64,000 bases of DNA from an uncultured Actinomycetes bacterium (GCA_963761665.1 CAVXHM010000005.1:135773-199772); one strand, 5' to 3'; counted from the first letter of the stretch, positions 17,283 to 49,853 are shown. Made by a program: numbers and translations. The notes: generated from the sequence alone by a model not told the origin.

Positions 17283-17474
17283 CGCAGCCGAAGGCGCGTT
17301 AGACGGAGGCGAGCTCATGCGGCCGGGGATGACCGCAGGTCACCACCGGCCGCACGGGGAAGCGAACGCGCCCCGACCGCTCTGAGTGGAGCACGCTCCG
17401 CCGCGCGCAGCCGGGACCGCGCTCCCGGCGGAGCGCACACACCGCGCCGCCACGAGCGCGAAGAGGAGGGGGCC

Positions 17475-17499
17475 AACGGGGGAACCCCGTTCCCCCGTT
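17475..17499. terminator. perfect 11-bp-stem palindrome between convergent genes, overlapping the giant gene's stop codon
   Basis: AACGGGGGAAC-CCC-GTTCCCCCGTT. The TAA stop of the giant gene is at 17500-17498. There is no clear U-tract on either strand. Confidence 0.4.
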
Positions 17500-20400
17500 A
17501 CCTCCGCGCAGTTTGGGGATAGCGCGACGTCGCCGCGAGCTGCGAGACGGCCTTCACGATCTTCTTCGGGCTGGACTTCTTCGAGAGCACGACCGTTGCG
17601 CCGAACCGCTTCGCGCGCTTGAGCTGTGCCGGGTGGCTCGAGACCGCGATGATCTTCACCATCGGGAAGACGAGGTGCAGGTTGTGCACGAGCCGCACCC
17701 CGTACTGGTCAACGTCGACGACGATCACCTGGGGGCTCCGCTTCTTATCCGCCGTGAAGTTCCAGGCCGCCATGTCCGAGCCGGCCACGAGCCGTGCCAC
17801 CTGCTTCGTCCCGGCCGGCAGCTGCGGGAGACCGGTGCCGGCCATGACCACGTACACCGGCTTCTTCGACTTGGGCAGCAGGGTGTGGATCGACTTGACG
17901 ATCTGCAGGCCGAAGGTGCGGTGGAGGACGGTCGTCCCGGACACCGCGCTCCAGCGCAGCGAGTACCAGCCGACATGGCGCGCCTTCGCCGGCAGGTAGA
18001 GCTTCCGGATCCCGATGCCGGCGCGGAACGAGAAGTGCCAGGTCTTCAGCGCCTTGTGCTTCTTGTTCAGCAGCGTCACCGTGAACGTCGACGGGTTGTT
18101 CGAGGCGAAGCGGACGCCGATGAACTTGCGCTGGGCGAGCGGCAGCCGGCCGGTGCCGATCAGGCCGAAGCCCCACTTGGCCTGGACATTCGAGCCGGCG
18201 AGCTGGAGCGCGATGGCCGACCCGGGCGCCGCGAGGTTGATGCCGACCGGGCCGACGACGGTGCCGTCGGGCGCGGTCGAGCCGGTCACGGTGATGTCGC
18301 CGACGGTGAACCCGGCCGCCAGGAGGGCCGCGCGGGCGGCGCTGAGGCTGAGGCCGGCGATGCTCGGCACGAGCTTCACCGTCGCGGGCGCGCTCGTGGC
18401 GCCGCTCGTGTCGACCTCGACGATCGAGTACGTGTGCGCGTCGTTCGGGTCGTACGGGCCGACGGTGTACTGCGTCTGGTTGCCGCCGAGGTTGGCGACC
18501 GGCTTGCCGTCGACGAAGAAGACGTAGTTCGCGACCGGGTCGCTGTTCCCCGGAGCCCAGTACAGCGTCAGGTTGCCGCCGTTGGCGGAGGCGGTGACGT
18601 TGCTCGGCGGCGCCGGCGACTGCGTGGCGGCGGTCAACGCGAACAGCGAGAGATGGCGCGTGAGGATGTGCAGCGTGCCGCCGGAGACGTAGTAGCCGTC
18701 CGTCCAGCCGGCCGGGAGCACGCCCGCGGTCGGGACTGCCTGGATCAGCCGCCACGACGTTCCGTCGTAGGTCGCGGCGGTGCTGCCGCCGTTGGCGCCG
18801 TCGATCTGGATATCGAGCGGCTGCACGAAGGAGTGCACCAGGCCGCCGGCCAGCGCCCAGTACGCGCTCGCGTCGACGACGGAGGTGAGTGCCATCGGCG
18901 CCGCCGGCGCTGCAGAGGGCTGCTCCGGCTGGACGCGGATGACGAGCCAGTCACCGGGGTTCCCGCCCGTCCAGGCGTTCGCCGGCATCGTCATGCTCGA
19001 GTCGGCGTCGGCCGAGTCGACCGTCGTCGAGTGCGCCAGCGACGCGTTCTTCTCCACGTACGGGGTCGTGCCCGGGCCGGAGGTGAAGACGGTGAAGTGG
19101 AGGAGGAACGGCGTCTGCTTGCCGACGGCGTCGGTCAGCGTGCCCGCGAGCGTGTGCGGGCCGGCCGACAGGGCGCCGGTGGCGTAGTCGACGTGCGTGC
19201 CGGTGATCGTCGGGGCGACGGTCGGGTTCCCGTCGAGCGTGACGCCGCTCAGCGTGACGTCCTCGCTCGTGTCGAACGCGATCGAGCTGGCGCTCGTGGT
19301 CACGGCGCCGTCCGTCGGGACGGAGGAGACGATGGACGGTGCGGTGTTGTCGATCCGGACGCCCGCGCGGACGCTCGTGCCCTGGTTGCCCAGGCCGTCG
19401 ATCGCCAGCGCGCGGATGTCGTAGAGGCCGTCGGACTCGGTGGTCGTGTCGAAGCTGGCGCTCCACGGGGAAGCGTGGTCGACGGAGATCGTCTGCCAGG
19501 TGTTCGCGCCGGCCGGGCTGACCTCGAAGGTGACGGAGACCGCAGCGGGGCCGCTCGTCGACGCCGTCAGCGGGACGGTGCCGGAGATGCCGGTGCCCGG
19601 ATCGGTCAGGACGACGGTCGGTGCGGTCGAGTCGACGTGGACGGTGACGGGCGCCGTCGTCTTGACGTTGCCGGCGTTGTCGGTGATCACGAGCCGCAGG
19701 TCGTAGTCGGCGGTCGGCACGGCCGACGCGTCCCAGTTGGTCTGGTACGGAGCGGAGCCGACCGTGGCGATCGACGTCCAGCTGTTCGTCCCGGTCGGCG
19801 CGTACTCGAACTGGACGCCGGCCACGCCGGAGCCGCCGTCGGAGGCGGTTGCGGCGAGCGGCGCGCTCGGGCCGCCGATGGTCTGGCCGGCGAGCGGCGA
19901 CGTCAGCGAGCCGGTCGGGTTCGTGTTGTCGACGACGACGGTGACGATCGGGCTCGTGCCGGTGTGGCCGGCCTGGTCGGTCGCGATCGCGTGCAGCTCG
20001 TAGGTGCCGTCCGTGAGGAGGTTCGTGTTGAAGGCGGTGCTGAACGGCGGGCCGACCGTCGCGATCGTCGTCCACGAGGAGCCGCCCTGCAGGCGGTACT
20101 CGAACTCGACCGTGGCCGTGTCCGCATCCGAGGTGGCGGAGATCGTCGGCGTGCCGGAGACGGCGGCGCCCGGGTTGTTCAGGGTCGGCGTGGGAGCGTG
20201 GTTGTCCACGTTCACCGTCACCGCCGCGGACGTCGTCGAGTTGCCGGCCGGGTCGGTGGCGCGCACCTGGATCGAGACCGGGCCGTCGCCGACCGAGGTC
20301 GAATCCCAGGTGGCGCTCGGGGACGCGCCGCTGGCGACGACGGAGCCGTTGACGAGGAAGTCGTACGTGAGCGGGTTCGCGTCGGAGGCGCTCGCGGTGA

Positions 20401-23400
20401 TGCCGACGCTGCTGCCGCCGACGAAGGAGCCGCCGGCGGGCGAGCCGACCGCCGCCGTCGGGGCGGTGTTGTCGACGACCACGACGCCCGCGCCGCCCGG
20501 GTGCAGGTCGATGGTCGAGACGTTGCTCGCGTTGTCGGTGATCACGGCCTGGAGGTGATAGGCGCCGTCGCCCGCAGCCGTCGTATCCCAGCTGGTCGAG
20601 TAGGTGCCGGCGCTGCCGGTCGTGTCGGTGCCGATGGTCGTCCACGTGACGCCGTCCGGCGAGTACTGGAAGGCGACCGAGGCGATGCCGGACAGCGAGG
20701 TCGGCGTCGCGGACAGCGTCACCGTGCCGCGGTAGTAGTCGGCGGCGGTGCAGCTCGGGCAGGCCGGCGGCGTCGCGTCGATCTGGACGACGACGGAGTG
20801 CTGCGTCTCGACGTTGCCGGCGTTGTCGACCGACTGGAACGTGATCGTGTGCGAGCCGTCGTTCGAGCCGTTGGACGGTGCCGGGATCAGCACCGAGGTG
20901 CCGTGCTGGGTCGGGCCGTTGTCGATGCTGTAGAGCGTGTCGCTGACGCCCGAGCCGGAGTCGGTCGGGGTGAGGGTGACGGTGACGTCGGTCGACGAGA
21001 AGCCGGGCGGGACGCCCGAGGCGGTCGTGACCGGCGGCGTGTTGTCGACGCGGCGGGCGGTCACGACGCTCGGCGTGCTGACGTTGCCGGCCGCGTCGGT
21101 GACGGTCGCGCGGACGTCGTACAGGCCGTCGGTGACGCCCGTCGTGTTCCAGCTGGCGCCCACCGGCTGCCAGGTCGCGCCGCCGTCGCCGGAGATCTCG
21201 TAGCTCGTCGAGACGATGCCGGAGGCGTTCGCGCCCGGATCGTTCGTACCGGCGGGGTTGGTCGCGAGCAGCACCGTGCCGCGGAGGTTCGCACCCGGAT
21301 CGACGATCTGGACGACCGGCGGAGTGTTGTCGACGAGACGGTTCGTCACCACGGTCGAGGCGGTCTGGTTGCCGGCGACGTCGTAGGCGACCGTGCGGAA
21401 GTCGTAGTGGCCGTCGGTCAGCGTCGTCGTGTCGAACGACGCGGAGTACGCGGGGCCGGTCGAGGTGCCGACCGTCGACCACGTGTTCGCGCCGGCCGGG
21501 GAGACCTGGAAGTCGACGTTGCCGACGCCGGAGCCGGGCTGGTTCTGCGGGTCGAGCGGATCCGCGGCGGTGCCCGTCAGGTTGACCGTGGCGCGCAGGT
21601 ACTGGCCCGGATCGTCCTGCGACGTGACCGGAGGCGTGTTGTCGATCTTCACGTTCGCGACCAGCGGCGACGTCGTCGTGTTGCCGGCGAAGTCGGTCAC
21701 GAGCACCTGCATCTGGTAGATGCCGTCGGTCACAGCGGTGGTGTCCCAGGCCGCCGGGTTGGCGATCGTCGCCCACGTGATGCCGTCGGCCGAGTACTGG
21801 TACGTAATCGTGGCGGGATCGACGCCGGAGGCGTAGCCGTTCGTGGTCGGGTCGCCGGTGGTGGAGGACAGCGCGACCGTGCCGCGGATGGCGTGCGCCG
21901 CGTTCGCCGCCGCCGGATCGGTCAGCGTCGCCGTCGGCGCGGTGTTGTCCTCGTGCCACGTCCAGCTGGCGGGCGACGCGTCGACGTTGCCGGCGAGGTC
22001 GACGGCGCGGATCTGCAGCGTGTGGCTGCCGTCGATCGGCGTGACCGCGAGGCTGTACGGGCTGGCGCAGGTCGTCCAGCCGCCGCCGTCGAGGTTGCAC
22101 TCGATCTTCTGCGTCGCCTCGCTCGCCGAGAAGGTGAAGGTCGGGTGCGCGTCGTTCGTCGGGTCGCCCGGCTTGGTCAGGATCGTCGTGTCGGGCGCCG
22201 TCCGGTCGACGGTCACGGCCGCGATCGAGCTGCTGGTGTGGCCGACGAAGTCGCCGGCGACGGCCTCGATCCAGTAGGTGCCGTCCGCCGGGATCGTCCA
22301 GGCGGTGCTGTAGACGCCGGCCGAGCCGGTCGAGTCGGTGCCGAGGTGGGTCGGCGAGCTCGAGCACGTGGCGTCGGTGCACTCGTAGAAGTCGACCTGC
22401 TGGACGCCGGTGCCCGCGTCGGCCGCGTTCGCCTTCACGGTGTACGGGTCGTTGTCGCTGGCGTTGACGTAGCCGCCGTCGACCGGCGCGGTGACGCTCA
22501 CCGTCGGCGCGTGGTTGTCCACGGTCACGTTCGTGACCGGCGTGGCGACGGTGACGTTGCCCGCCCAGTCGGTGGCGGTGGCGCGGATGTCGTACTGGCC
22601 GTCGGCGACCGCGTCCGGGCCTGTCTTCGTGTTCCAGGTCGCGGGCACGGTCTGCCAGCTCGTCGTGCCGTGCGGCGCGACTTCCCAGACGACCGCCGGG
22701 CTCGGGTCGGCGTCGACGATCGTCGCGGTGAGCGAGACGGTGTTGGCGATGCCGCCGTTGCTGAGCGGGCTGGTGATCGTGACCGACGGCGGGGTGTTGT
22801 CGATCCGGACGTTCGTGATCGGCGAGGACGACGCGGAGTTGCCGGCGTTGTCGACCGCGACCACGTGGAGGTCGTAGAGGCCGTCGGCGACCGCGTCGGG
22901 ACCGGTCTGCGTGTTCCAGGTCGAGGACGAGATCGGCGTCCACGGGCCGCCGCTGCCGGCGGTCGAGTACTCGAAGGTGGTGCTGGCGACGCCGGTGCCG
23001 CCGATGTCGGTCGACGTCGAGTTGAGCGAGATGGTGCCGCTCAGGTGGCTGCCGGGGTTGTTCATGCCCGCCGATGGCGGCACGGTGTCGATCGTCCACG
23101 AGTAGGCGGCCGGGGACGGGTCGACGTTGCCGGCGACATCGGTGGCGCGGACGTGGAACGTGTGCGGGCCCTCGCCGAGGGTCGGCAGCGTCAGCGGCGA
23201 GGCGCAGGCGCTGTAGCCGGCGCCGTCGAGCGAGCACTCGAAGGTGGAGCCGGCCTCGCTGGACGAGAAGCCGAAGGTCGGGGCGGCCACGTTGCTCGGG
23301 TTGGACGGCTTCGCGCCGATGCTCGTCGTCGGCGGGATCGTGTCGATCTGCACCGTCTGGGTGCCGACGGCGGTGATGTTGCCGACGTTGTCCTCGGCGA

Positions 23401-26400
23401 GCCACTCGATCGTGGTCGTGCCCTCGGTCGAGACGTTGAACGTGGCGGATGTGCCCGCGACCTCGGTGCCGTTGGTGACGACGTCGCTGCCGTTGATCGC
23501 CGGCGTGGAGCCGTCGGTGGTGTAGACGATGCGCTGGACGCCGGAGCCTGCGTCGGAGGCGTTGAGCGCGATCGAGACCGGGCTGCTCGTGTACCAGCCG
23601 GCCGAGCAGGCGGCGGAGTCGCAGCTGATCGACGCGGTCGGGTTCGTGCCGTCGGCCTGGGCGGTGAAGCCGGCGCCGCCGCTCGAGAGTCCGGCGTTGT
23701 TCTGCGCCGTGACCGAGCCGCTCTGCGTTCCGGCGCTGTTGTCGAAGGTGTAGAGACCGTTCGTGTTCGACCAGCCGGAGCCGAGCGACGGATACGTGTA
23801 GCCGGCGAGACCGGAGTCCGCGTCGGCCGAGCCGCTCGCGTTGACGGTGAAGCTGCCGGTTCCGCCGCCCTGGAAGAAGACGGTCGAGCCGGAGCCGGAG
23901 TAGTACGTGTGCGCGCCGCTCGTGAAGTTGAGCGTCGGCGCGTTCGGCGCGGTCGTGTCGAGCTCGACGGTCTGCGTCGAGATGGAGGAGACGTTGCCGA
24001 CGTTGTCCTCGGCGATCCACTTCACGGTGGTGGTGCCGAGGGCGACGATGTTGAAGTTGGCGACGGCCGCGTCGACCTCGGTGCCGTTGGTGACGAGGTC
24101 GCTGCCGTTGATCGCCGGCGCGGAGCCGTCGGTGGTGTAGACGATCCGCTCGACACCGGAGCCGCCGTCGCTGCCGCTGATGGACAGGGCAACCGGGCTG
24201 CTCGTGTACCAGCCGGCCGAGCAGGCGACGGTGTTGCAGGTGACGGAGCTGGTCGGTGCGGTCGAGTCGGCCTGCGCGGTGAAGCTCGTGCCGGAGCCGG
24301 CGAGCCCGGCGTTGTTCTCCGCGGTGACCGAGCCGGACTGCGTACCCGCGGTTCCGTCGAAGCTGTACGCGCCGCCGGTGTTCGTCCAGCCGGTGCCGAG
24401 CGACGGGTAGTCGTAGCCGGAGACGCCCGACTCGGGATCGGTCGAGCCGCTCGCGGCGACGGTGAAGCCGCCGGAGACGCCGCCCTGGAAGAACACGGTC
24501 GAGCCGCTGCCGGGCCAGTACGCATGGCTCGGGGAGGAGAAGGTGAAGCCGGTCGGCGCGGTCGGCGCGCTGCCGTCGATCTGCAGCGTGATCGACTGCA
24601 CGCCCGACGCGTTGCCGAGGTCGTCGACGGCGAACCACTTGATCGTCTCCGGGGTGGAGAGCTGGAACGACGCGGTCGAGGCGTTCACCGTGGTCGCGGT
24701 GCCGCTTGTGGTCGGGTCGGAGCCGTCGGTGGTGTAGACGACCTTCTTCACGCCCGAGCCCGAGCCGTCGTTGCCCGTGATGTCGATGTTCACCGGGACG
24801 CTCGTGATCCAGCCGGAGCCGCACGGGTTGCTGTCGCAGGTGATCGAGCTCGTCGGCGCGCTCCCGTCGACCCGGGCGGTGAAGCCCGTGCCGGTGCTGG
24901 AGAGTCCGGCGTTGTTCTGCGCCGTGACCGAGCCGCTCTGCGTCGTCGCGGAGCTGCTGAAGGTGTAGACGCCGCCGGTGTTGGCGAAGCCGCCGCCGAG
25001 GCTCGGATATGTGTAGCCCGCGATGCCGGACTCGCCGTCGGTCGAGCCGGAGCCGCCGACGGTGAAGCCGCCGCTCGCGCCGCTCTCGACGAAGACGGTC
25101 GAGCCGCTGCCCGGGTAGTACGCGTTGGTCAGGCCGGAGAAGCCGAGCGTCGGCGCGGTCGGGGCGGTGGTGTCGAGCTCGACCGTCTGGCTGCTGACGC
25201 TGCTGATGTTGCCGACGTTGTCCTCGGCGATCCACTTGACCGTGGTCGTCCCGAGCGAGCTGACATTGAAGCTGGCGGATCCGCCGGCGACTTCCGTGCC
25301 GTTGGTGACGGTGTCGCTGCCGTTGATCGTGGGTGCGCTGCCGTCGGTGGTGTAGACGATGCGCTCGACGCCGGCGGCTCCGTCGTTGGCCGTGATGGAC
25401 ATCGAGACCGGGCTGGAGGTGTACCAGCCCGCGCTGCAGGCGGCGCTGTCGCAGCTGATCGAGCTGGTCGGCGCGGAGCCGTCGGCCTGGGCGGTGAAGC
25501 TCGTGCCCGTGCTGGAGAGTCCGGCGTTGTTCTGCGCGGTGACGGCGCCGCTCTGCGTTCCGGCGGTGTTGTCGAAGGTGTAGGCGCCGTTCGCGTGCGA
25601 CCAGCCGCTGCCGAGACCCGGGTACGTGTAGCCGGCGACGCCGGAGTCGCCGTCGGTCGAGCCGTTGGCCGCGACGGTGAAGCCGCCGGTGCCGCCGTTC
25701 TGGAAGTAGACGGTCGAGCCGCTGCCCGGGTAGTAGGCCTCGGTCGTGCCGGAGAAGGAGAAGCCGGTGGGCGCGGTCGGCGCGGTCGTGTCGAGCTCGA
25801 CCGTCTGGCTGCTGACGCTGCTGATGTTGCCGACGTTGTCCTCGGCGATCCAGCGGACCGTCGTCGTCCCGTCGCTCGTCACGTTCAGGCTCGCGTTCGC
25901 ACCGGCGACCTCGGTGCCGTTGGTGACGACGTCGCTGCCGTTGATCGCCGGCGCGGATCCGTTGGTGGTGTAGACGATGCGCTCGACACCGGCGCCCGCG
26001 TCGCTCCCTGTGATGGACATGGCGACGGGCGAGCTGGTGTACCAGCCGGCCGAGCAGGCGGCGGTGTTGCAGGTGACGGAGCTGGTCGGCGCCGAGGAGT
26101 CGACCTGGGCGGTGAAGCTGGTGCCGGCGCTGTCGAGTCCGGCGTTGTTCTGCGCGGTGACGGAGCCGGTCTGCGTGCCCGCCGTGCTGTCGAACGTGTA
26201 GCCGCCGCCGGTGTTCGACCAGCCGCTGCCGAGGCCGGGGTAGGTGTAGCCGGCGAGGCCGGACTGCAGGTCGGTCGAGCCGCTCGCGGTGACGGTGAAG
26301 CCGCCGGAGCCGCCGCCCTGGAAGAACACGGTCGAGCCGGCGCCCGAGTAGTAGGCGTTGCCGAAGCCGGAGTAGGAGAGGCTCGGTGCGTTGGGCGCGG

Positions 26401-38400: not shown

Positions 38401-41400
38401 CGGTGCCGGTGAGCGTGAGCAGGTAGCAGTTGCCACTCGCGACGGTCTGCGACGTGGTGCCGCTGATCGTGCTCGGCGCGCCGAAGGAGCCGCAGTTGTT
38501 GGCAGAAAGCGTGGCCGACTGGATTGTCAGCGTCGACGAGGCGATGCCCGAGCCGCTGTCGGTGAAGTCGGTGCGGCTGTTGATCGTCAGCGTCGTGCCG
38601 GCGGTGAGGTAGCTCGTGCTGCCGCCGCCGGTGGCCGCGATGCCGTTGGCCGTGAAGGCGCCGCCCGACGGGGCGGTCGTGTCGGACTGGGCGGTGAAGG
38701 TCGTGCTGCCGCCCGTCAGTCCGGCGTTGTTCGTGGCGGTGACCGCGCCGGTGCCGGTCGGCGAGGCGGCGGTGAAGGTGTAGGCGCCGGCGGTGTTGCC
38801 CCAGCCGGTGCCGGCGACGGCGCCGTAGTTGTAGCCCGAGACGCCGGTGTCGGCGTCGGTCGAGCCGGAAGCGGTGACGGTGAAGCCGCCGGCACGTGCC
38901 TCCCTTGAAGTAGATGGTCGTGCCGGCGCCCGGGTAGTAGGCGTTGCTCAGCGCCGGAGAAGGTGAAGCCGGTCGGGCGCCGACGGCGCGGTCGGTGTCG
39001 ACCATCACCGTGGTCGAGATCGAGGCGGTGTTGCCGACGTTGTCGGTGCCGGTCAGGGTGAGCAGGTAGCAGTGGCCGCTGGCGACGGTCTGCGAGGTCG
39101 TGCCGGTGATCGTGGCGCGGTGCGCCGTAGGCCGAGCAGCTGTTGCCGGACAGCGTTCCGGTCTGCATGGTCAGCGTGGAGGAGGCGAGGCCGGAGCCGC
39201 CGTCGGTGTAGTCGGTGCGGCTGTTGATGGTGAGTGTGGTGCCGCTGTTGAGGTAGCTGGAGCTGCCGCCGCCGGTGGCCACGGTGCTGTTGGCGGTGAA
39301 GGCGCCGCCGCTCGGGGCGGTGGAGTCGGCGGTGGCGGTGAAGCTGGCGCTCGCTCCCGTGAGTCCTGCGTTGTTGCTGGCGGTGACCGCGCCGGTGCCG
39401 CTGGGCGAGGCGCCGGTGAAGGTGTAGGCGCCGGCGGCGTTGGCCCAGCCGGTGCCGGCGATGGCGCCGTAGTTGTAGGCGGCGACGCCGGTGTCGGCGT
39501 CGGTCGAGCCGGAGGCGGTGGCGGTGAAGCCGCCGGCACTGCCTCCCTTGAAGTAGACGGTCGTGCCGGCGCCCGGGTAGTAGGCGTTGCTCAGCCCGGA
39601 GAAGGTGAAGCCGGTGGGCGCCGACGGGGCGGTCGTGTCCACCATCACCGTGGTCGAGATCGAGGCGGTGTTGCCGACGTTGTCGGTACCGGTCAGGGTG
39701 AGCAGGTAGCAGTGGCCGCTGGCGACCGTCTGCGAGGTCGTGCCGCTGATCGTGGCCGGTGCGCCGTAGGCCGAGCAGCTGTTGCCCGACAGCGTTCCGG
39801 TCTGCATGGTCAGCGTGGAGGAGGCGAGGCCGGAGCCGCCGTCGGTGTAGTCGGTGCGGCTGTTGATGGTGAGTGTGGTGCCGCTGTTGAGGTAGCTGGA
39901 GCTGCCGCCGCCGGTGGCCACGGTGCTGTTGGCGGTGAAGGCGCCTGCGCTCGGGGCGGTGGAGTCGGCGGTGGCGGTGAAGCTGGCGCTCGCTCCCGTG
40001 AGTCCTGCGTTGTTGCTGGCGGTGACCGCGCCGGTGCCGCTGGGCGAGGCGCCGGTGAAGGTGTAGGCGCCGGCAGCGTTGGCCCAGCCGGTGCCGGCGA
40101 TGGCGCCGTAGTTGTAGGCGGCGACGCCGGTGTCGGCGTCGGTTGCGCCGGAGGCGGTGGCGGTGAAGCCGCCGGCGGCGCCGCCCTTGAAGTAGACGGT
40201 CGAGCCGGCGCCCGGGTAGTAGGCGTTGCTCAGCCCGGAGAAGGTGAAGCCGGTCGGCGCCGACGGCGCGGTCGTGTCCACCATCACCGTGGTCGAGACG
40301 GAGGCAGCGTTGCCGACGTTGTCGGTGCCGGTCAGTGTCAGCAGGTAGCAGTGGCCGCTGGCGACCGTCTGCGAGGTCGTGCCGGTGATCGTTGCCGGCG
40401 CGCCGTACGCGCTACAGGCGTTGCCGGAGAGGGTTCCGGTCTGCATGGTCAGCGTCGAGCTGGCGAGGCCGGAGGCGGTGGCGGTCTGCGTCTCGGTGTA
40501 GTCGGTGCGGCTGTTGATCGTCAGCGTCGTGCCGGCGTTCAGGTAGCTGCTCGTGCCCGCGCCGGAAGCCACGACCGTGTTGGCGGTCAGCGCGCCGCCG
40601 GCGGGAGCGGTGGAGTCGGACTGCGCCGTGAAGCTGGCCGAGGCGCCGGTCACGCCGACACCGTTGGTGGCGGTGGCCGAGCCGGTGCCGGTGGGCGAGA
40701 GACCCGTGAAGGTATACGCGCCGGAGACGTTCCCCCAGCCGGCGCCCGCGATCGCGCCGTAGTTGTAGGAGGCGATCCCCGAGTCGGCATCGGTGGCGCC
40801 CGACGCGGCGGCGGTGAAGCCGCCGGCCGTGCCGCCCTTGAAGTAGACGATCGAGCCGGAGCCGGGGTAGTAGCTGTTGGTGAACGCCGAGAAGCCGAAC
40901 GTCGTCGGCGCGCTCGGGGCGGTCGTGTCCACCTTGACCGTGGTGGAGATCGAGGCGGTGTTGCCGACGTTGTCGGTGCCGGTCAGCGTGAGCAGGTAGC
41001 AGTGGCCGCTGGCGACGGTCTGCGAGGTCGTCCCCGTGATCGTGGCCGGTGCGCCGTACGCGCTACACGCATTGCCCGAGAACGTTCCCGTCTGCATCGT
41101 CAGCGTGGACGAGGCAAGCCCGGAGCCGCCGTCGGTGTAGTCGGTGCGGCTGTTGATCGTCAGCGTCGTGCCTGCCGTGATGGTGCTCGAGCTGCCGCCG
41201 CCCGTGGCTGCGACGCTGTTCGCCGTGAAGGCGCCGGTCGCCGGCGCGGTGGAGTCGACGGTCGCGGTGAAGCTGGCGCTCGAGCCGGTCAGTCCGGCGT
41301 TGTTGGTGGCGGTGACCGCGCCGGTGCCGCTCGGCGATGCGGCCGTGAAGGTGTAGGCCCCGGCGGCGTTGGCCCAGCCGGTGCCGGCGATCGCGCCGTA

Positions 41401-44400
41401 GTTGTAGCCCGAGACGCCGGAGTCGGCGTCGGTGGCGCCGGAGGCCGTGGCGGTGAAGCCGCCTACCGCGCCGCCCTTGAAGTACACCGTCGAGCCGGCG
41501 CCCGGGTAGTAGGCGTTGCTCAGGCCGCTGAAGGTGAAGCCGGTCGGCGCGCTCGGGGCCGTCGTATCCACCATCACCGTCGTCGAGATGGAGGCGGCGT
41601 TGCCGACGTTATCGGTGCCGGTGAGCGTGAGCAGGTAGCAGTGGGCGGTGGCGACGGTCTGGCTGGTGGTGCCGGTGATGGTGGCGGGTGCGCCGTAGGC
41701 CGAGCAGCTGTTGCCGGAGAGGGTTCCGGTCTGCATGGTGAGCGTCGAACTGGCGAGGCCGGAGCCGCCGTCGGTGTAGTCGGTGCGGCTGTTGATCGTC
41801 AGCGTCGTGCCGCTGTTGATGTAGCTCGTCGTGCCCGCGCCCGACGCCGCGACGGTGTTGGCGGTGAGCGCGCCGCCGGCAGGAGCCGTCCCGTCGGACT
41901 GCGCCGTGAAGGTCGTGGCGGAGCTGGCCAGGCCCGCGTTGTTCGACGCCGTGACCGAGGAGGTGCCCGTCGGGGAGGCGGCAGTGAAGGTGAACGCGCC
42001 GGCGACGTTGGCCCAGCCGGTGCCCGCGATCGCGCCGTACGTGTAGCCGGAGATGCCGGTGTCAGCGTCGGCCGAGCCGCTCGCGGTGGCGGTGAAGCCG
42101 CCGGCTGCGCCGGCCTTCGTGTAGATGATCGTGCCCGAGCCGGGGTAGTAGCTGCTCGTCAGCGCCGAGAAGGTGAATCCGGTCGGCGCGCTCGGCGCGG
42201 TCGTATCCACCTTCACCGTCGTGCTGACCGTGGGAGCGACGTTGCCGACGTTGTCGGTGCCGGTCAGCGTCAGCAGGTAGCAGTGGCCGCTCGCGACGGT
42301 CTGCGAGGTGGTGCCGGTGATCGTCGCGGGGGCGCCGTACGCGCTGCAGGCGTTGCCCGAGAGCGTCCCGGTCGCCATCGTCAGCGTCGAGCTCGCGACG
42401 CCCGAGCCGCCGTCGGTGAAGTCGGTGCGGCTGTTGATCGTCAGCGTCGTGCCGCTGTTCAGATAGCTGGAGCTGCCGCCGCCGCTGGCCGCAACGCTGT
42501 TCGCGGTGAACGCGCCGCCACTCGGAGCCGTCGAGTCCGCGGAGGTCGTCCACGTGCCGTTGGCGGAGGTGAGCCCGACGTTGTTCGTCGCCGTGACGTT
42601 CTGCGCGCCCGGAGTGGCCGCGCCGGTCGTATACGAATACGTGCGCGTCGCCCCGGAGCCCGACACGGCCCAGTTCGTCCCCATCGAGCCGGCCGTCGGG
42701 AACGTGTAGCTCGCGATGCCGGTGTCGGCGTCGGTCGAGCTGGCGGTGATGTCGAAGGTGCCCGTGGCGGCGCCCGGCCGGAACCAGACGGTCGAGCCGG
42801 CGCCGGAGTAGTACGCCCCGCCGCCGAGGTTCGCGAAGGCAAAGGTCGGCGCGCTCGGCGCGGTGGTGTCGACCTTCACCGTGGTGCTGAGGGTGGGGGC
42901 GACGTTGTTGACGTTGTCGGTGCCGGTCAGCGTAAGGAGATAGCAGTTGCCGCTCGCAACCGTCTGCGAGGTCGTACCGGTGATCGTCGTCGCGCTCCCG
43001 AACGCGCCGCAGGTGTTGCCGGTCAACGACGCCGACTGGATCGTGAGCGTCGAGGAGCGGATCCCGGAGCCGGCATCCGTGAAGTCGGTGCGGCTGTTGA
43101 TGGTGAGCGTGGTGCCGCTGGTGATCGTGCTCGAGCTGCCGGCGCCGGTCGTCGCGGCGACGCTGTTGGCGGTGAACGCGCCGCCGGTCGGCGCGGTCGT
43201 GTCGGCGACGTAGTTGAGGATGACGGAGCTCGTGTTTCCGGCAGCGTCCGCGGCCAGCAGCGTCTCGGGCCCGGGCGCCGTCGTCGCCGACGTCGTCCAC
43301 GCGTACGACGGCGACTGCCACGGCGATCCGGTCGCGACGGCGCCGGCGCCGGTAAAGCCCACCGGCAGTACGCGCGCCGCGTACTGAGCGGTGACCTGCG
43401 CCGCGCTGAGCACGCTCGAATAGACCGAGACGTCGTCGATCGATCCGTTGAAGTACTTGCCGCCGTTCGACGCGTCGTCCACCGGCACGGCGACGCCCAC
43501 GTTGAACCCCTGCGCCCCCGGCGCCACCGTGTTGAGCGGAGTCGTCGGGGTCTGCGAGCCGAGGCTGGTGCCGTCGAGATACACGGTCATCGAGTTCGTC
43601 GAGCCGTTGTAGGTCTCGACCGCCTCATGCCAGTTCCCGTCCTCGACGTTGGAGGTGACCGGCGTCGTACTGAAGGTCAGGTCCTCGCCGCCGCCCCAGC
43701 CCCAGGTCATGAGCTGGTTCGCGCTCAGGACGAAGAGGCCGAAGTTCTGGCCGGCCGAGCAGCCGCTGACGCCGCTCGTACACCCGTAGCTCGTCAGCGC
43801 CTGCTGCCCGGTCGTCGTCGTCTTGAACCAGGCCGAGACCGACCGGCTCGCGGTGCCGCTCGGGATCCCGATGGGATTCGCCCCGACGACCTTGCCGTTG
43901 CTCGCAGCGGTGAACGTGATCGCCGGGTCCGTATCGGTCGAGAAGGCACCCGGCGTCGTATTACGCGTGTAGCCGCCGCTGGCGACGCCGGTGTTGCCGT
44001 TGCCGGACGAGTCGGCGACCGTCGTGCCGGCCGTCTCGCTGAAGCGCCAGAATAGCACCGGGCTCTGGGTCATGGCCGTGTTTGCGGTGGTGCCGATCCC
44101 GGGGAAGATCGTCGAGCCGAGTCCGCTGCCGCTGTCGCTGGAGGCCGAGCCGTCGACCTTGAAATCGCCGGCGACCGTCGGGTTGTAGTACAGCGTGTCG
44201 GAGCCCGAGTTGTAGAACTGGTCGAGGGGATTCGTGCCGGGAACGATGGTGAACGACGCCGTCGGCGCAGTCGTGTCGTACAAGAACGTCTTCGAGGCGA
44301 CTGCCGATGCGTTCTCCGCGTAGTCCGCCGTCTGCGTGTGGATCGTGTAGCTGTCCCCGTTGGTGAGGTTCGTGTTCGGGAAGGTGTAGCTCCACGTGGC

Positions 44401-47211
44401 TGCCGAGCCCGGCGTCGCCGTCGTGGGACCGGAGGTCGGGTTGAAGTACACCTCGGGTCCGGCGGCGGCACCCCAGGCGGCTCCGCTCCAGTACTTGTTC
44501 GCCGTGTCGTCGTGGATCGAGAGCTGGGTGACCCCGGCGGTGACGTCGATGCCCGATCCGCCCGTCTCGTCGGTGGCGCTGCCCGTGATCGCTCCCGCCC
44601 AGCCGGTCGCGTTGTAGGCCGCATTGGCCGGATACGTCACGGCGGCGGTCGGCGCGGTGACGTCGAGCTTGTACGCGACGGTGACGGCTGCCCACTGTCC
44701 GGACGTGACGGCGCCGCCGCAGATCTGGGCGCCCGTCGCGTTGACGTTCTTGTACACGGCCTCCGCCTGCATCGTCCCGACGGTTCCGAGCAGGCCCGTG
44801 GCGGAGCACGAGTTGTTCCCGCCGTTCACGGTCACCGTGCCGCTGGCGAGGCCTCCGACGACCAGGTCGCTGGCCTGGGAGGTCGCTCCCGTGGTCGCGG
44901 TCGCGCTCGCCGTATTGCCCGTGCTCGACCCGACGGTGCCATCGACCGGGCTTGAGGTGAGCACGCCGCGGAAGGCGTACACGGTCGCCACCTTCAGAGC
45001 GGTCGACGTTACGGGGAACGTGACCGTGATCGTGTTGCCACTGGCCAGAGCCTGGGTAACAGGCGCCCGCAGGAGTGCGGCGTGCTTCGTTCCCGTCGCG
45101 TTATTCGATCCCGCGTCCTGTGTATAGGTGTTGTGGGTCGCAAGGTTGTCCGTCGCGGAGATGGCCGTGGCCGAGCTGGCGTTCTGCGCGGCGACGATGA
45201 AGAGCGTGCTGTTGACGGGGACGTTGTCGGTCAGGGTGACCGTGACCGTGTTCGCGTTCGCCACGGACGTGTTCGAGGCGATCGGCGCCGGCCCGAACGC
45301 GTAGGTGGCGAGCGCCGCGCCGTAGTGGGAGTTCGCCGAGAGGGTCGCGGTGCACGACGTCGTTCCCGTCGCCGTGAGTTGGTTGTAGAACGGCTGGAGT
45401 CCGATACCGGTGGCCGTCGTCTGCGTGGCTGCAGTCGGGCAGCTCGGGCTGTTGAACGTCCTGGCATTGCTGTTGACCGCTCCTGCGGCGACCACGAACT
45501 CGTACGGGCTCGTCGTCGCCGCGGTCGTGCCGGTGGTGAACGCCGTCGTATTCGCCGCCGATCCGTTTGTGACGGTCTTGTCCACCTGGGCTGCGGAGCC
45601 CTGCACGTAGAAGGCGGAGACAGCGCGCGCTGCGGTCGCGGCGCTTGTCGTGACGGTGATCGTCTTGCCGCTCGCCATCGGCTGGGTGACGGGCGCGCTC
45701 ATGATCACCGTCGTCTGGCCCGTGTTGTCCTGCACGTCCTGGGTGTAGGTCTCGTGCGTCGCCAGGTTGTCGGTGGCGGTCCAGGCGCCGGCGGTCGTCG
45801 TGCTCATCGACCCGACGATGAAGATCGTGCTGCCCACCGGCACGGCCACGCCGGACGTGATCGTGAGGGTTGTCGTCGTGCTGCTGGCGGAGCTGGCGCT
45901 TCCGATCGCGACAGGACCGGGCGAGGCGATCGCCGCCTGGTACGGACCGACGTACGGTCCGCCCGCCGCCCGGCCGGAGATGCCGGCCGGAACGACCTCC
46001 GCCGTATTCGTGTCGCTTAACGCGCGCGCGAGGTCGAGACGGCCGTTGCCGGTCTGGGGCTTCGTGCCCGCCTTGTGCGCGCTGCGGGCGAGCCGGCCGA
46101 TCACGATCGAGTTCGTGGACTTCTTGTCGTTGCCGAGCAGCAGTGCCGCGCCGCCCGCGACGAGTGCTGCCGACGCGGAGGTACCGGTGACCATCGTCGT
46201 TCCGCCGCCCGGCGCGTCCGCGACGATGTTCACACCCGGTGCGGCGATGAACGTGTCGGCGCCGTAGTTGCTTCCCGACCAGAGACGATCGAGCGGATCG
46301 GTCGCCGACACGCCGACGACATGCGCGTCGCCGGCCGGGTACGTCGGCGTGCTCGAGCCGTGGTTGCCGGTCGCCGCGACGACGACTGCGCCCTTCGACC
46401 ACGCGTAGTCGATCGCGCGCTGAAGGTCGGGGCTGTAGCCGCTGCCGGCGAAGCTCATGAGGATGACGTTCGCGTGATGGTCCGCGGCCCACACGAGACC
46501 CTTGATGATGTCGCTGTCCGTTCCGAGTCCGTGTGCGTCGAGCACCTGCACCGGCATGATCTTCGCGTACTGATCGACTGCGAGTGCGGTGCTCGTCATC
46601 CATGTTCCATGTCCGTTCGGATCGCTCGTCGCGCTCGAACCGGTGAATGCGCTGTAGCCGCCGACGAGGTGCGAGTGGAGATCGCGCAGACTTCCGTCGA
46701 CGCCGGTGTCGAGAATCGCGACCTTTACGTTTCTCTTCGCGGTCGCGTTGCGATACGCGGACTGCCAACCGATCCGCTGCAACGCCCACTGTCGTGAGAT
46801 CGCAGAGTTGGTTGCGCCGCCCGCGATGCTGCGGACCTCGTTCGGCGATGCACTCGCGACGTTGTGACTCGCACGCAGATGCGCGAGCAGGCGCTTCGCC
46901 TTCGACGGCGCGACGGAGATGACGGACAGACCGAGAGGAAGCGATCCGGTCGTGACCGTGCCGTAACCGGAGAGCAGTTGCTTCTGCTTCGCGCTCGACA
47001 GACCCGAGCGGAAGCGGACGGTGATCGATGCGGTCCGCGTCTTGCCGCTGTGCGGAGTGCGCACGAGCAGGTCGGACTGCGGCCAGTTCGGGAGGGCGGA
47101 CGGCGACGTGGTGTGCCGGCCCCCGCCGACGAGCAGGATGACGCCCGCGACGGCAGCGCACAGCGCAGCCATCGCGAGTACATGCAGATGCAGGTGTCGA
47201 CGTGCGGTCAC
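17498..47211 (-). CDS. giant (about 9,900 aa) secreted or cell-surface repeat protein with N-terminal S8 subtilase; frame disrupted by 8 single-base insertions
   Basis: ORFs 38716..47466 and 17498..38365 are co-linear and carry the same repeat family. The gap and the out-of-frame stretches are explained by extra bases at about 39117, 38995, 38977, 38953, 38895, 30585, 30354 and 29645, seen by comparison with sister repeats. From GTG 47211 (AGGTG 6 nt upstream) to TAA 17498, excluding the stop codon, is 29,711 nt; minus 8 this is 29,703 nt, exactly 9,901 codons. ATG 47172 is an alternative start. Confidence 0.75.
17520..17865 (-). other. C-terminal Lys/Arg-rich module with a receiver(CheY)-like sequence pattern
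   Basis: PVYVVMAGTG...ARLVAGSDMAAWNFTADKKRSPQVIVVDVDQYGVRLVHNLHLVFPMVKIIAVSSHPAQLKRAKRFGATVVLSKKSSPKKIVKAVSQLA. The beta3 VVDVD, beta4 IIAVS and beta5 LSKK spacing resembles REC domains, but the beta1 acidic pair is absent. GC content here is visibly lower than in the repeats. Confidence 0.3.
18195..18365 (-). other. PASTA-like domain
   Basis: VPSIAGLSLSAARAALLAAGFTVGDITVTGSTAPDGTVVGPVGINLAAPGSAIALQLAGS matches the PASTA pattern as I remember it (vP.l.G.s...A...L...Gl.vg.......v..G.Vv.q.P..G......g..v.l..s). Confidence 0.5.
18365..18615 (-). other. fibronectin type III-like domain
   Basis: APPSNVTASANGGNLTLYWAPGNSDPVANYVFFVDGKPVANLGGNQTQYTVGPYDPNDAHTYSIVEVDTSGATSAPATVKLVP. Confidence 0.5.
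19085..23335 (-). repeat. about 15 divergent ~95-105-aa bacterial Ig-like modules
   Basis: Modules are delimited by (I/V)DNT(P/A)P, e.g. ...WNTKTGPDAVADGQYDIRATATDWAGNVTVATPVTNVTVDNHAP. Two modules are of the type PTFGFSSSEAGSTFECSLDGAGYSACASP...GPHTFHVRATDVAGNVDPSP. The last one resembles an SbsA-type Ig domain (SVPTDGAVTTSASSIAFDTSEDVTLSGVTLDG). Confidence 0.6.
23335..32540 (-). repeat. type-B tandem coding repeat, 15 units of ~615 bp (~205 aa)
   Basis: Consensus: DTTAPTAPTGF(T/S)FSSP(S/T)HAYWPGSGSTVYFQGGGSGGFTVAASGS.D..SGVAGYTYPGLG.GWSNT.GAYTF....GTQSGSVTAQNNAGLSS.GTSFTAQ.D.(S/A)APTSSVTC.T.ACSAGWYT.SPV.I.ITGSD..AGVERIVYTTDGSAPTINGSD.VTNGTEV.....F.....GTTTVKWIAEDNVGN.SSVSSQTV.L. The ..YTTDGS.PT.. 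half resembles chitobiase/hexosaminidase C-terminal (CHB_HEX_C-like) domains. Confidence 0.8.
32540..43210 (-). repeat. type-A tandem coding repeat, about 17 units of ~640 bp (~213 aa)
   Basis: Consensus: DTTAPSAPTGFTFSGL(S/T)NAYYPG(A/S)GSTVYFKGG.AGGFTATASGS.DADTG...YNYGAIAGTGW.N.AGAYTFT.ASP(T/S)GTG.VTA.NNAGLTG.SASFTA..DSTAP.GGAFTANS.VA.GGGSSSYLNSGTTLTINSRTDYTDGGSGLASSTLTMQTGTLSGNSCSAYGAPATITGTTSQTVASGHCYLLTLTGTDNVGN.ASISTTV.V. Each unit has two conserved Cys residues. Confidence 0.85.
43375..44065 (-). other. LamG / concanavalin-A-like lectin domain (Laminin_G_3-like)
   Basis: PVLFWRFSETAGTTVADSSGNGNTGVASGG...SRSVSAWFKTTTTGQQALTSYG...NQLMTWGWGG...DGNWHEAVETYNGSTNSMTVYLDGTSLGSQ...YFNGSIDDVSVYSSVLSAAQVTAQY. 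This is the typical 'L.F.E..G....D.SG.GN.G...G' and 'F.G.iDeV.iY...Ls..qi' pattern. Confidence 0.65.
44661..45939 (-). repeat. two tandem ~205-aa Thr/Ala/Ser-rich modules of unknown family following the protease
   Basis: The paired motifs are ...PVGSTIFIVGSMSTTTAGAWTATDNLATHETYTQDVQDNTGQTTVIMSAPVTQPMASGKTITVT... and ...PVNSTLFIVAAQNASSATAISATDNLATHNTYTQDAGSNNATGTKHAALLRAPVTQALASGNTITVT... Confidence 0.55.
46011..46734 (-). other. peptidase S8 (subtilisin) catalytic domain
   Basis: Catalytic triad motifs: VAILDTGVD (Asp codon 46710-46708), NGHGTWMTS (His codon 46611-46609) and GTSASAALVAG (Ser codon 46179-46177), with oxyanion ATGNHG. It is preceded by an I9-like propeptide stretch and a TM/signal anchor (LAMAALCAAVAGVILLVGG). 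Confidence 0.85.
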
Positions 47212-47660
47212 GCCGACACCTGCACCTGGTCGAGCGGGTGCATCGCGACTGCGGCCCTTGGAGTGGCGAGCTCGGAGAGGGTCGAGACGATGCGTACTGC
47301 GGCCGGAGCGACCGCGGCAACGGCGAGCGGAACGCACAGCAGGCGAACGCCCTCGGACAGGTCCGAGGACATTCGATTGGGCCGCACGTTCGGGAAGCTC
47401 GCCATTTCCAAGTCGCGCGCATGGACGCGCGATCTCCAGTCCTGTTGATCGGCTTACAGGGCCCACTCACTGAAGGGTTTCCCGGTTAGAAAAAGGTAGG
47501 AAAGGTGACGGAGGACGAAAAGATCACCCCGTAGAGGGAGGGATAAACGCGATGTCCGCGTCAGGAGCGCGATTGCGGGTCGTTCGCGCTCGCGCCTCCG
47601 TCACACCGGATCAGCCTCGACTCGAGCGTGAGAGTCACCGATTTCGACGGAGCCCGCGCG

Positions 47661-47666
47661 TACAAT
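47661..47666 (+). promoter_or_regulatory. candidate -10 box TACAAT, 6 nt upstream of ATG 47673 (leaderless mutase mRNA)
   Basis: Sequence reads TACAAT cgcggc ATG. Confidence 0.45.
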
Positions 47667-47672
47667 CGCGGC

Positions 47673-49342: not shown

Positions 49343-49345
49343 TCG

Positions 49346-49840: not shown

Positions 49841-49847
49841 ACCGGCA

Positions 49848-49853
49848 TAGACT
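49848..49853 (+). promoter_or_regulatory. candidate -10 box TAGACT, 7 nt upstream of ATG 49861
   Basis: Sequence reads TAGACT tcgccct ATG. Confidence 0.35.

Follow-up and report, generated by a model that had tools for sequence, protein, structure and literature searches.

The locus lies at positions 17498..47211 of the minus strand and, with a length of about 29.7 kb, takes up nearly half of the window, i.e. the whole stretch of 64,000 nucleotides that was analysed. Two minus-strand ORFs are present here, 38716..47466 and 17498..38365 (the latter referred to as ORF B), exactly where the first-pass annotation of this DNA had placed them. It had also been claimed that the repeat encoded by both ORFs continues through the gap between them and that every break of the frame is a single extra base, eight in total. 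Indeed, one broken repeat unit joins the two ORFs, and DNA alignment gives eight 1-base insertions. When these eight bases are removed, 29,703 nt remain between the GTG start codon (47209-47211) and the TAA stop codon (17498-17500), and the 9,901 codons plus TAA obtained in this way reproduce the earlier figure. The corrected product comprises 9,901 aa with a mass of 969.8 kDa and a pI of 4.2. There is no stop in the corrected frame, whereas the other two frames contain 148 and 17 stops, respectively, so that the frame is open far beyond chance, and the repeat stays in register through both clusters of frameshifts described below. Start and stop of the gene are fixed by alignments with homologues. 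Residue 1 of the homologue P0001 aligns at GTG 47211, and the motif AGGTG is found 5 nt upstream of this start codon. Furthermore, P0001 has a divergent methylmalonyl-CoA mutase gene upstream, as is the case in the window. Directly 3' of the stop codon a G+C-rich hairpin (17470..17497, minus strand, 11-bp stem, -22.8 kcal/mol) could act as a terminator; its z value against shuffles is -0.9 and therefore not significant. Judged by its sequence, the host is an uncultured soil bacterium of the Gaiellaceae (Thermoleophilia, Actinomycetota). The cluster mates of the flank proteins (at least 90% identity) carry the name Gaiellaceae bacterium.

Domain architecture of the corrected product

All features described in the following are encoded on the minus strand, and the N- to C-terminal order of domains proposed in the first-pass annotation survived testing. 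The protein starts with a basic n-region, followed by a hydrophobic segment at aa 11-29 (47125..47181; Kyte-Doolittle mean 2.68). This segment is predicted to be a Sec signal peptide or a signal anchor and is the sole hydrophobic one of the protein, as the next best segment in the Kyte-Doolittle scan scores 1.69; no clear signal-peptidase site is present after the h-region. It is followed by a propeptide-like region at aa ~55-135 (46807..47049), which is conserved in homologues. With phmmer, positions 69-395 of the query align to pro-subtilisin E (3whi) and thus extend into the latter's propeptide, which weakly supports the I9-like propeptide suggested earlier, whereas Pfam gives no match to Inhibitor_I9 at E<=0.1. 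The catalytic domain of the peptidase S8 family (PF00082; aa 160-400, 46012..46734) is matched over aa 160-383 with 106.1 bits compared with a cut-off of 21.8. The D-H-S triad had been described as intact, and D168, H201, and S345 are in fact present and, together with the oxyanion-hole residue N283, invariant across 10 homologues. The domain is of the subtilisin/thermitase type with a complete triad and predicted to be active; the closest solved structures are the Ak.1 protease and thermitase. Two tandem all-beta modules of ~205 aa follow (aa 425-850, 44662..45939), which consist of strands throughout in the AF2 model (pLDDT 73) and have neither a Pfam or NCBIfam match nor a convincing match in a PDB fold comparison. 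They are followed by an Ig-like region (aa 851-1045, 44077..44661), which is conserved in homologues and has only a very weak Big_3_3 match, and by a LamG/concanavalin-like lectin domain (aa ~1046-1290, 43342..44076; Laminin_G_3, 67 bits).

The largest part of the protein is made up of three arrays. The type-A array (32552..43350) contains one partial and 16 full units of 213-217 aa, each of which combines a shared ~100-aa module with a Cys-paired beta module that has no Pfam model. The type-B array (23354..32548) contains 15 units of ~206 aa, in which the same shared module is combined with a CHB_HEX_C_1/Fn3_assoc module carrying a CxxxxC pair. Then 15 Ig-like modules of 89-104 aa follow (19334..23353; Big_13, Big_3_3, Big_7), which were counted by boundary motifs in aa 7951-9290. 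CHB_HEX_C_1, Fn3_assoc, Big_13, Big_3_3, and Big_7 all score over their cut-offs. The Cys pairs give 17 type-A units (spacing 22) and 15 type-B units (spacing 5), which agrees, as does the number of Ig-like modules, with the ~17, 15, and ~15 units counted before. In total, the three arrays hold about 80 beta-sandwich modules in 47 tandem units, and the whole protein consists of about 90 bead-like domains; 78 cysteines form 39 regular pairs and one further cysteine lies in the TM segment. It is possible, at well below even odds, that the gene is real and its length partly an assembly artefact, with units duplicated or collapsed, so that 17 type-A units, 15 type-B units, and 9,901 aa are not the true numbers. 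The DNA of three successive A units is 95-99% identical, with the first cluster of errors at their edge, a pattern typical of read misplacement; the unit number in this near-identical block (window ~39000-40300) could be mis-assembled. However, most other units differ by 10-30% at the DNA level from their best match and are therefore individually placeable, and a relative on contig L084 likewise has long arrays.

The C-terminus is formed by a cassette of 612 aa that is conserved in about 24 proteins. Its first part, aa 9291-9527 (18623..19333), is conserved in about 20 homologues and has no Pfam match. It is followed by a beta sandwich at aa 9528-9612 (18368..18622), whose earlier designation as FN3-like is upheld by the AF2 model (pLDDT ~90) and by FN3 matches in Foldseek; Pfam fn3 finds no match in the protein's own tail; one of the tail homologues has a precomputed PF00041 match. 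The PASTA domain (PF03793; aa 9613-9672, 18188..18367), previously annotated as PASTA-like, exceeds the cut-off of 23.2 by a small margin, with 26.7 bits in a 145-aa piece and 24.0 bits in a long piece, and 17 of the 24 homologues of the tail have it as a precomputed match. What had been called a basic tail is basic, but instead of being disordered it comprises two folded, conserved domains according to AF2. These are a beta sandwich at aa 9680-9770 (17894..18166), identified by the AF2 model and a charge count (16 K+R and zero D/E in aa 9681-9775), and an alpha/beta domain at aa 9776-9892 (17528..17878) with beta-alpha repeats. Together these two domains have a net charge of +34, and the last 221 aa have a pI of 11.8 compared with 4.2 for the whole protein. 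AF2 models the tail with four folded domains at a pLDDT of 79. For the last domain, no family gives a significant match, and its resemblance to RcsB (E=0.01) is sub-threshold. Its identity as a receiver (REC) domain is not supported: Response_reg (PF00072) gives 21.9 bits compared with a cut-off of 30.2, beta1 reads VVMAGTG and lacks the acidic pair, and hhalign against CheY was negative (probability 0.1). Near the C-terminus the regular expression L[PA]xT[GAN] detects no LPXTG motif, and there is no C-terminal hydrophobic segment. Among the HMM families proposed for checking, Peptidase_S8, Laminin_G_3, CHB_HEX_C_1, the Big types, and PASTA were recovered; Inhibitor_I9 and fn3 were not.

The head has homologues with 48-87% identity in MAGs of Gaiellaceae, Acidimicrobiia, and other Actinomycetota (P0001-P0010), all of which are fragments, and none of them shows the full head-to-tail architecture. 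A complete S8-headed orthologue in a single ORF was not found in the databases, as all of them break off where the contig stops or run into out-of-frame sequence. Two further relatives, P0165 (5,969 aa) and P0167 (3,411 aa), are uninterrupted ORFs, each with an N-terminal signal/TM segment and the 612-aa cassette, to which they are 33 and 41% identical over its full length, respectively. A- and B-like units are visible in P0165, and P0167 has six type-A matches besides Ig-like/Fn3_assoc domains. Moreover, hundreds of S8 proteins with Ig repeats exist in MAGs, annotated as "S8 family serine peptidase, partial" or "thermitase". Hence, the earlier statement that no known family combines such parts was overstated, and by sequence comparison the protein is not unique but has relatives that share its repeats and its tail.

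Comparison with known systems and proposed orientation on the cell

It is very likely that this acidic, disulfide-rich protein is secreted or surface-located, since the 39 Cys pairs, the single TM-like segment, and the Ig, FN3, LamG, CHB_HEX_C, and PASTA domain types all point to an extracytoplasmic location. The cell-envelope proteinases of Gram-positive bacteria, such as PrtP (lactocepin) and the streptococcal C5a peptidases ScpA/ScpB, have an N-terminal signal and propeptide, an S8 head, an FN3/Ig-like stalk, and a C-terminus on the wall; with its propeptide-like region and putative C-terminal anchor, the protein would follow the same plan, in which a spacer carries the protease. These proteinases are roughly five times shorter. 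Unlike PrtP and ScpA, the protein has no LPXTG motif, its putative anchor being the PASTA and polybasic domains, its stalk is composed of 47 tandem units, and no PA insert was detected: there is no match to a PA domain, and the S8 match runs without interruption from profile position 2 to 281 over 224 residues. Among the giant tandem-Ig adhesins known from monoderm bacteria are the 7,651-aa adhesin of Mobiluncus mulieris (PMC10619420) and Giant1-5 of Apilactobacillus (PMC12863079). Like these and Ebh of S. aureus, the protein falls into a range of ~3,000 to ~10,000 aa, is acidic and secreted, is encoded by what is by far the largest gene of its genome, and has dozens of near-identical beta-sandwich repeats; with one TM-like segment, 47 units, and 39 Cys pairs it displays further traits of giant adhesins. 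In contrast to this protein, those adhesins are anchored via LPXTG or a C-terminal TM segment where they have been characterised, and the A and B units differ from theirs in that half of each unit has no Pfam model. To our knowledge, the M. mulieris adhesin, Ebh, and Giant1-5 have binding heads and no catalytic subtilase. N-terminal S8 subtilisin domains were described for some giant proteins of Omnitrophota and Actinobacteriota, and CheY-like receiver domains for giant actinobacterial proteins (West-Roberts et al., 10.1101/2023.11.21.568195). However, those giants exceed 30,000 aa and have many TM segments and SecA-like domains, whereas the protein described here contains only one TM-like segment and lacks such domains. 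The best NCBIfam model for the S8 head is that of mycosin, the subtilase of type VII secretion (TIGR03921). As it scores 130.8 bits, far below the cut-off of 278.75, no ESX genes are among the annotated flanking genes, and the C-terminal TM segment of mycosins is missing, the protein is not a mycosin.

For the orientation on the cell, we consider a C-terminal, non-covalent anchoring with a distal head to be plausible, at slightly less than even odds. The protein would be exported by Sec with its N-terminus first. Autocatalytic removal of an N-terminal propeptide is the normal case in subtilases; if it is also assumed here, the cut would at the same time separate the mature protein from the membrane segment at the N-terminus. 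The C-terminal cassette, which would be exported last, would then hold the protein on the cell non-covalently, with PASTA binding peptidoglycan and the polybasic domains binding anionic wall polymers or the membrane. If each domain is taken to be about 3.5-4 nm long, the Ig-like arrays would form a stalk of ~0.3 um that presents the protease, the two ~205-aa modules, and the lectin domain far from the cell, where this head would bind material that is proteinaceous or bears glycans and degrade it. Such a protein would amount to a cell-envelope proteinase with a very long tether. A reversed topology is rather unlikely. Here, the N-terminal segment would be a retained signal anchor, which the lack of a clear signal-peptidase site after the h-region would fit, with the protease at the surface and the PASTA/basic cassette pointing outward as an adhesin for the walls of other cells or anionic particles. 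PASTA and polybasic domains could indeed bind foreign peptidoglycan or minerals, and since relatives that lack the head retain this tail, the latter may be the functional end. However, the propeptide-like region is conserved, and its autocatalytic removal would sever an N-terminal anchor; moreover, where giant adhesins and cell-envelope proteinases of Gram-positive bacteria have been characterised, it is their C-terminus that lies next to the wall.

Frame breaks and the putative C-terminal tether

The eight breaks form two clusters. The first (38896..39117) lies at the 3' edge of the three-unit block of 95-99% identity and has one extra base at each of five sites, whose approximate positions, with the inserted base on the minus strand, are 39117 (C), 38995 (C), 38974 (G), 38953 (C), and 38896 (C). 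All five are within one repeat unit and were placed by aligning this unit with its sister, which lies 639 bp upstream and has 99% identity. The second cluster (29645..30586) comprises three 1-base insertions, 30586 (G), 30354 (G), and 29645 (A), and is hidden in ORF B, since the alternative frames are open in that stretch and no stop is created; that this part of ORF B is in wrong frames became apparent from a scan of the GC3 phase and from tblastn searches in which repeat units served as queries. Three further breaks are found in two nearby housekeeping genes. Two shifts of +1 (or -2) distribute the neighbouring methylmalonyl-CoA mutase gene over three frames, positions 2-234 and 284-512 of the Pfam profile lying in different frames, and trpB has one shift in the same direction (+1 or -2). 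The orthologous contigs L001, L083, and L084 are partial. In the close orthologues L084 and L083 the equivalent C-terminal region is intact, and they are broken elsewhere. For aa 7901-9901, which are downstream of every break, dN/dS against two orthologues is 0.24-0.51, and this region is thus under purifying selection, whereby values of 0.4-0.5 in parts of the tail indicate moderate constraint only. The eight breaks are therefore probably uncorrected single-base insertion errors of the assembly and not biology, because all of them are 1-base insertions accompanied by same-way shifts in the mutase gene and trpB, because the first cluster borders on the most self-similar block and the orthologues break elsewhere, and because of the dN/dS values downstream.

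It is improbable that the frameshifts are real and the locus is a pseudogene of recent decay or comprises two genes or more, one for an S8-headed protein of ~2,900 aa and one for a head-less protein of ~6,950 aa. Giant repeat genes impose a high cost and are frequently lost, the uncorrected first ORF runs into out-of-frame sequence until the stop at 38716, and no intact S8-headed orthologue of such size is on record. On the other hand, five insertions in 222 bp with hardly any substitutions compared with the 99% identical sister unit are unlike pseudogene decay, the same direction of the shifts in the two housekeeping genes and the constraint downstream of the breaks argue against it, and 9,901 codons are stop-free once corrected; ORF B lacks a signal sequence of its own and its "start" is the first GTG within a repeat. 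A biological use of the breaks, i.e. programmed frameshifting or phase variation leading to truncated and full-length forms, is hardly credible: two of the eight insertions (30586, 30354) lengthen short G runs, but there is no common slippery motif, most sites are outside homopolymers, eight independent events would be required, and identical-looking shifts occur in unrelated housekeeping genes. The single gene that was originally proposed is supported by the stop-free corrected frame, the kept register, the start and cassette matched in homologues, and the uninterrupted relatives, and the locus is probably one gene that is intact in vivo. That it is one functional giant gene for an S8-headed surface protein, the breaks of which are artefacts, is assigned a probability of about 0.7.

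Tentatively, the C-terminal cassette may represent a new sortase-independent tether for megadalton surface proteins of Gaiellaceae and related uncultured Actinomycetota, in which interchangeable heads sit on a common stalk of A and B units. If this is true, the head would be an S8 protease with a lectin domain in the protein described here, and other heads would be carried by the 3,411- and 5,969-aa relatives.

Reading frame and frame breaks of the giant gene

ORF listing of the minus strand gave two very long ORFs, 38716..47466 (2,916 aa) and 17498..38365 (6,955 aa), named here ORF A and ORF B, and a 639-bp repeat can be traced across the gap between them through all three frames, the terminal part of ORF A being out-of-frame and arginine/proline-rich. 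Alignment of the broken unit to a 99%-identical unit 639 bp upstream places five single-base insertions at about 39117, 38995, 38974, 38953, and 38896, which lead from the frame of ORF A exactly into that of ORF B. Within ORF B, a scan of codon-phase G+C (GC3) revealed that about 29.6-30.2 kb is out of phase, and three-frame translation and tblastn with unit queries showed that the homologous reading passes through all three frames there. Three further insertions, each of a single base, were located by DNA alignment to the neighbouring units: G at 30586, G at 30354, and A at 29645. None of them introduces a stop, the alternative frames being open over this part of ORF B. After removal of the eight bases the gene comprises 29,703 nt, i.e., 9,901 codons followed by TAA, with no stop in the corrected frame versus 148 and 17 in the other two. 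The first-pass annotation had proposed a single gene of ~29.7 kb with eight extra bases and 9,901 codons; both figures were reproduced by the DNA alignments and the stop-free corrected sequence, and the observation was accurate and its interpretation sound overall. An AGGTG lies 5 nt ahead of the start codon GTG 47211, with which P0001, the closest named homologue, aligns by its residue 1, while about 20 homologues end at the same place as the giant protein, their C-termini aligning end to end. An 11-bp G+C-rich hairpin directly follows the stop at 17498, which is no better than in shuffled sequence and hence not significant.

Several independent observations argue that the eight breaks are assembly or consensus errors, to which we assign a probability of roughly 0.8. 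Each of the eight is the insertion of one base. Within one unit, a span of 222 bp contains five of these insertions; apart from them, this unit and its 99%-identical neighbour are separated by a few substitutions. The cluster lies at the 3′ edge of the gene's most self-similar block, made up of three units with 95-99% DNA identity, and it is in such a block of near-identical units that read placement is most difficult. Moreover, frame shifts of the same direction are found in ordinary genes of the window. The divergent gene for the methylmalonyl-CoA mutase large subunit (47628-49342, plus strand) lies in three frames with shifts near 48465 and 48590 (+1 or -2), and positions 2-234 and 284-512 of the mutase Pfam profile match in different frames. 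In the trp operon (2332-8265), trpB changes frame near 3625 (+1 or -2; ~3560-3700, minus strand), reading ...GRLPEAV in one frame and then [14 protein letters not shown]...[10 protein letters not shown] in another. The related metagenomic contigs L084 and L083 have the same gene end and the same downstream genes, with protein identities to the window of 93-95% over most of the Ig array and about 90%, respectively, and both show frame breaks at other positions, where the window is intact. A real inactivation of the giant gene is possible as well, provided that it happened very recently: in the 2,000 codons that lie beyond the last of the eight breaks, dN/dS against L083/L084 is 0.24-0.51, and the sequence is therefore unlike a stretch drifting after an old inactivation. 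Errors in the assembly or consensus are the reading that we prefer.

Domain architecture of the corrected protein

The sole hydrophobic segment of the protein (aa 11-29) is followed by a conserved propeptide-like region (aa ~55-135), which phmmer aligns to pro-subtilisin E (3whi) from residue 69. It has no Pfam match to Inhibitor_I9; of the “I9-like propeptide” suggested earlier the conserved, pro-subtilisin-like region stands, and the assignment to I9 is tentative. Peptidase_S8 (aa 160-400) is matched with 106 bits in Pfam, its closest solved relatives being Ak.1 protease, thermitase, and subtilisin BPN′, and D168, H201, N283, and S345 are invariant in 10 of 10 homologues, which bears out the S8 protease with an intact D-H-S triad (D168/H201/S345) of the first-pass annotation. 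By its sequence, the giant protein is a member of peptidase family S8. Assignment to the mycosins was rejected (130.8 bits vs. a cut-off of 278.75), and the protein is not a PrtP/ScpA-type enzyme, because the PA insert and LPXTG are both lacking. The S8 domain is followed by two related modules of ~205 aa (aa 425-850), predicted to be all-beta by AlphaFold2 (pLDDT 73), for which neither Pfam nor NCBIfam gave a match and Foldseek against the PDB gave nothing credible (best hit the N-terminal region of reelin, probability 0.30). An Ig-like region (aa 851-1045) and Laminin_G_3 (aa 1046-1290, 67 bits), which confirms the LamG-like domain proposed before, complete the head. Detection depended on the length of the query: Pfam returned no family at E<=0.01 for the whole 2,831-aa N-terminal piece (38719-47211), whereas the same residues searched as 430-480-aa pieces recovered Peptidase_S8 with 106 bits and Laminin_G_3 with 67 bits.

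The type-A array (aa 1288-4885) consists of one partial and 16 full units of 213-217 aa, the type-B array (aa 4887-7950) of 15 units of ~206 aa, and 15 Ig-like modules matching Big_13, Big_3_3, and Big_7 follow at aa 7951-9290. The first ~100 aa are common to A and B units (DTTAPSAPTGFTFS...YYPGSGSTVYFKGG), but the second halves differ, as that of the A unit is a Cys-paired module without a Pfam model and that of the B unit a CHB_HEX_C_1/Fn3_assoc module with a CxxxxC pair. An independent count via the Cys pairs gave 17 A and 15 B units, in agreement with the initial estimate of about 17 type-A and 15 type-B units; its figure of about 15 Ig-like modules holds as well. The beta-sandwich modules of the protein number about 80, and their disulfide pairs are regular.

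The conserved 612-aa C-terminal cassette (aa 9291-9901) comprises an unassigned region, an FN3-like sandwich, a PASTA domain, a beta sandwich, and an alpha/beta domain. The PASTA-like domain, also foreseen at first reading, scores 26.7 bits in Pfam, above the cut-off of 23.2, and the last 382 aa were modelled by AlphaFold2 with a mean pLDDT of 79. The last ~220 residues have a net charge of +34 and a pI of 11.8, in a protein of 969.8 kDa with an overall pI of 4.2; neither LPXTG nor a C-terminal hydrophobic segment was found in it. The last ~120 aa (17528-17878, minus strand) form the predicted alpha/beta domain, in which the motif VIVVDxD...VFP...GA is invariant. For an extracellular protein, this is an odd fold to end with. 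Giant actinobacterial proteins with receiver-like domains have already been noted (10.1101/2023.11.21.568195). We do not call the last domain a receiver, because Pfam (Response_reg, 21.9 bits), the PDB profile search (RcsB, E=0.01), and hhalign against CheY were all sub-threshold or negative; in a Foldseek search with a four-domain model of the tail, FN3 matches dominate and the last domain gets no information.

Relatives and genomic neighbourhood

Among 8,000 candidates scored, 487 proteins matched the head (aa 1-1330) at E <= 1e-5; most of them come from MAGs of Actinomycetota and Chloroflexota, have Ig-like repeats behind S8, and are annotated as “S8 family serine peptidase, partial” or “thermitase.” The closest head relatives are 48-87% identical and each stops at a contig end or in out-of-frame sequence; the divergent mutase gene is also present beside one of them. 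A scan of genome contigs with the head alignment yielded no close full-length orthologue (best identity 50%). At 90% identity or more, the proteins of flanking genes cluster with ones named Gaiellaceae bacterium (Thermoleophilia, Actinomycetota). The cassette matched 24 proteins with 36-88% identity, and one A unit, in a full HMMER pass against 1.84 billion representatives, matched 700 proteins at E <= 1e-3 and 143 at E <= 1e-30. Two of the A-unit matches, P0165 (5,969 aa) and P0167 (3,411 aa), are uninterrupted ORFs that have a signal/TM segment at the N-terminus and contain the 612-aa cassette in full (33% and 41% identity, respectively). P0165 contains both A-like and B-like units, and P0167 has six type-A unit matches together with Ig-like, Fn3_assoc, and PASTA domains; the S8 head is absent from both. 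Stalk and tail can therefore be regarded as a conserved chassis, intact as giant genes elsewhere, and the S8/LamG head as one of several heads, since P0165 and P0167 share units and cassette without the S8 head.

The window has a G+C content of about 71%. Over 46000-50000, which covers the gene head, the intergenic region, and the mutase gene, it is 0.66-0.67 compared to ~0.71 elsewhere, and GC3 is 0.84 in the S8 head versus 0.95-0.98 in the arrays. Downstream of the giant gene (17498..47211, minus strand) lie genes for a cobalamin adenosyltransferase, a GNAT acetyltransferase, an isochorismatase, an APH-type kinase, an acyl-CoA dehydrogenase, and a 3-hydroxyacyl-CoA dehydrogenase. Upstream, the mutase gene is followed by a gene for a 164-aa protein (49346-49840, plus strand) that has a hydrophobic segment near its N-terminus and matches no Pfam family, by that of the B12-binding subunit, by an ORF (50253-51005) that by eye looks like an enoyl-CoA hydratase, and, 3.7 kb upstream of the giant gene, by a lytic transglycosylase gene (50914-52143, plus strand) encoding two PG_binding_1, a LysM, and an SLT domain. 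This wall-remodelling enzyme might help a megadalton protein to cross the wall. Nothing resembling a dedicated secretion, glycosylation, or sortase system was found among the flanking genes annotated, and tRNA and Rfam searches gave no match in the window.

A plus-strand ORF of 3,463 aa (17513..27904) runs antisense to the arrays; it was rejected as a gene because the domain and homologue evidence is all on the minus strand, and is regarded as a shadow of the sense frame, whose GC3 is very high (0.95-0.98). Further long antisense ORFs are present at 39100-44055 and 30662-34081. All three are probably such shadows and could mislead gene callers. In L083 (1-10000) and L084 (1-10000), the homologous arrays are covered in the public annotation by dozens of ORFs of 30-140 aa called on the wrong strand, and thus the giant gene is effectively unannotated there. 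The practical lesson is that gene callers split or miss this locus.

Possible function and significance

The observed parts start with a single hydrophobic segment of the export type, which precedes a subtilase whose active site is complete and a domain of the lectin type; at the C-terminus comes a folded cassette, conserved among relatives, which contains PASTA and is very basic. From these it can be assumed that the protein would be exported by Sec and that the propeptide would be removed autocatalytically, as in subtilisin and thermitase, the chain also being freed from its N-terminal segment. The cassette would emerge last and retain the protein on the cell, with PASTA binding peptidoglycan and the polybasic domains binding anionic polymers or the membrane, and the arrays would act as a spacer of about 0.3 µm bearing the protease/lectin head. 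The main rival to this model is that the N-terminus stays in the membrane and that the tail is the distal, adhesive end. The whole arrangement would follow the logic of the lactococcal and streptococcal cell-envelope proteinases, but the giant protein is ~fivefold longer and would have another anchor.

The giant protein appears to belong functionally to the giant tandem-Ig surface proteins, like the 7,651-aa adhesin of Mobiluncus (PMC10619420) and the Giant proteins of Apilactobacillus (PMC12863079). In surveys of huge proteins, surface proteins are one of the two main bacterial classes (PMC11573180), and S8 at the N-terminus of giant proteins has been remarked on (10.1101/2023.11.21.568195). 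In the literature searched and to our general knowledge, we found no description of the full head-to-tail architecture, of the A and B units, of the two N-terminal modules, or of the PASTA/polybasic cassette as a shared end piece. The corrected sequence gives a first head-to-tail view of a protein of which public MAGs have fragments only, and from it come a candidate cassette for anchoring without LPXTG and two types of module that no family model covers.

The community surveys retrieved often list Gaiellaceae with the Actinomycetota of soils and sediments. To our knowledge only few cultured representatives exist, and we are aware of almost nothing reported on their cell surface. Gaiella occulta has a genome of about 3 Mb (PMC6741124), and of a genome of this size a gene of about 30 kb would make up roughly 1%. 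The giant gene is under purifying selection in several lineages, and therefore it is presumably central to how Gaiellaceae cells meet their surroundings.
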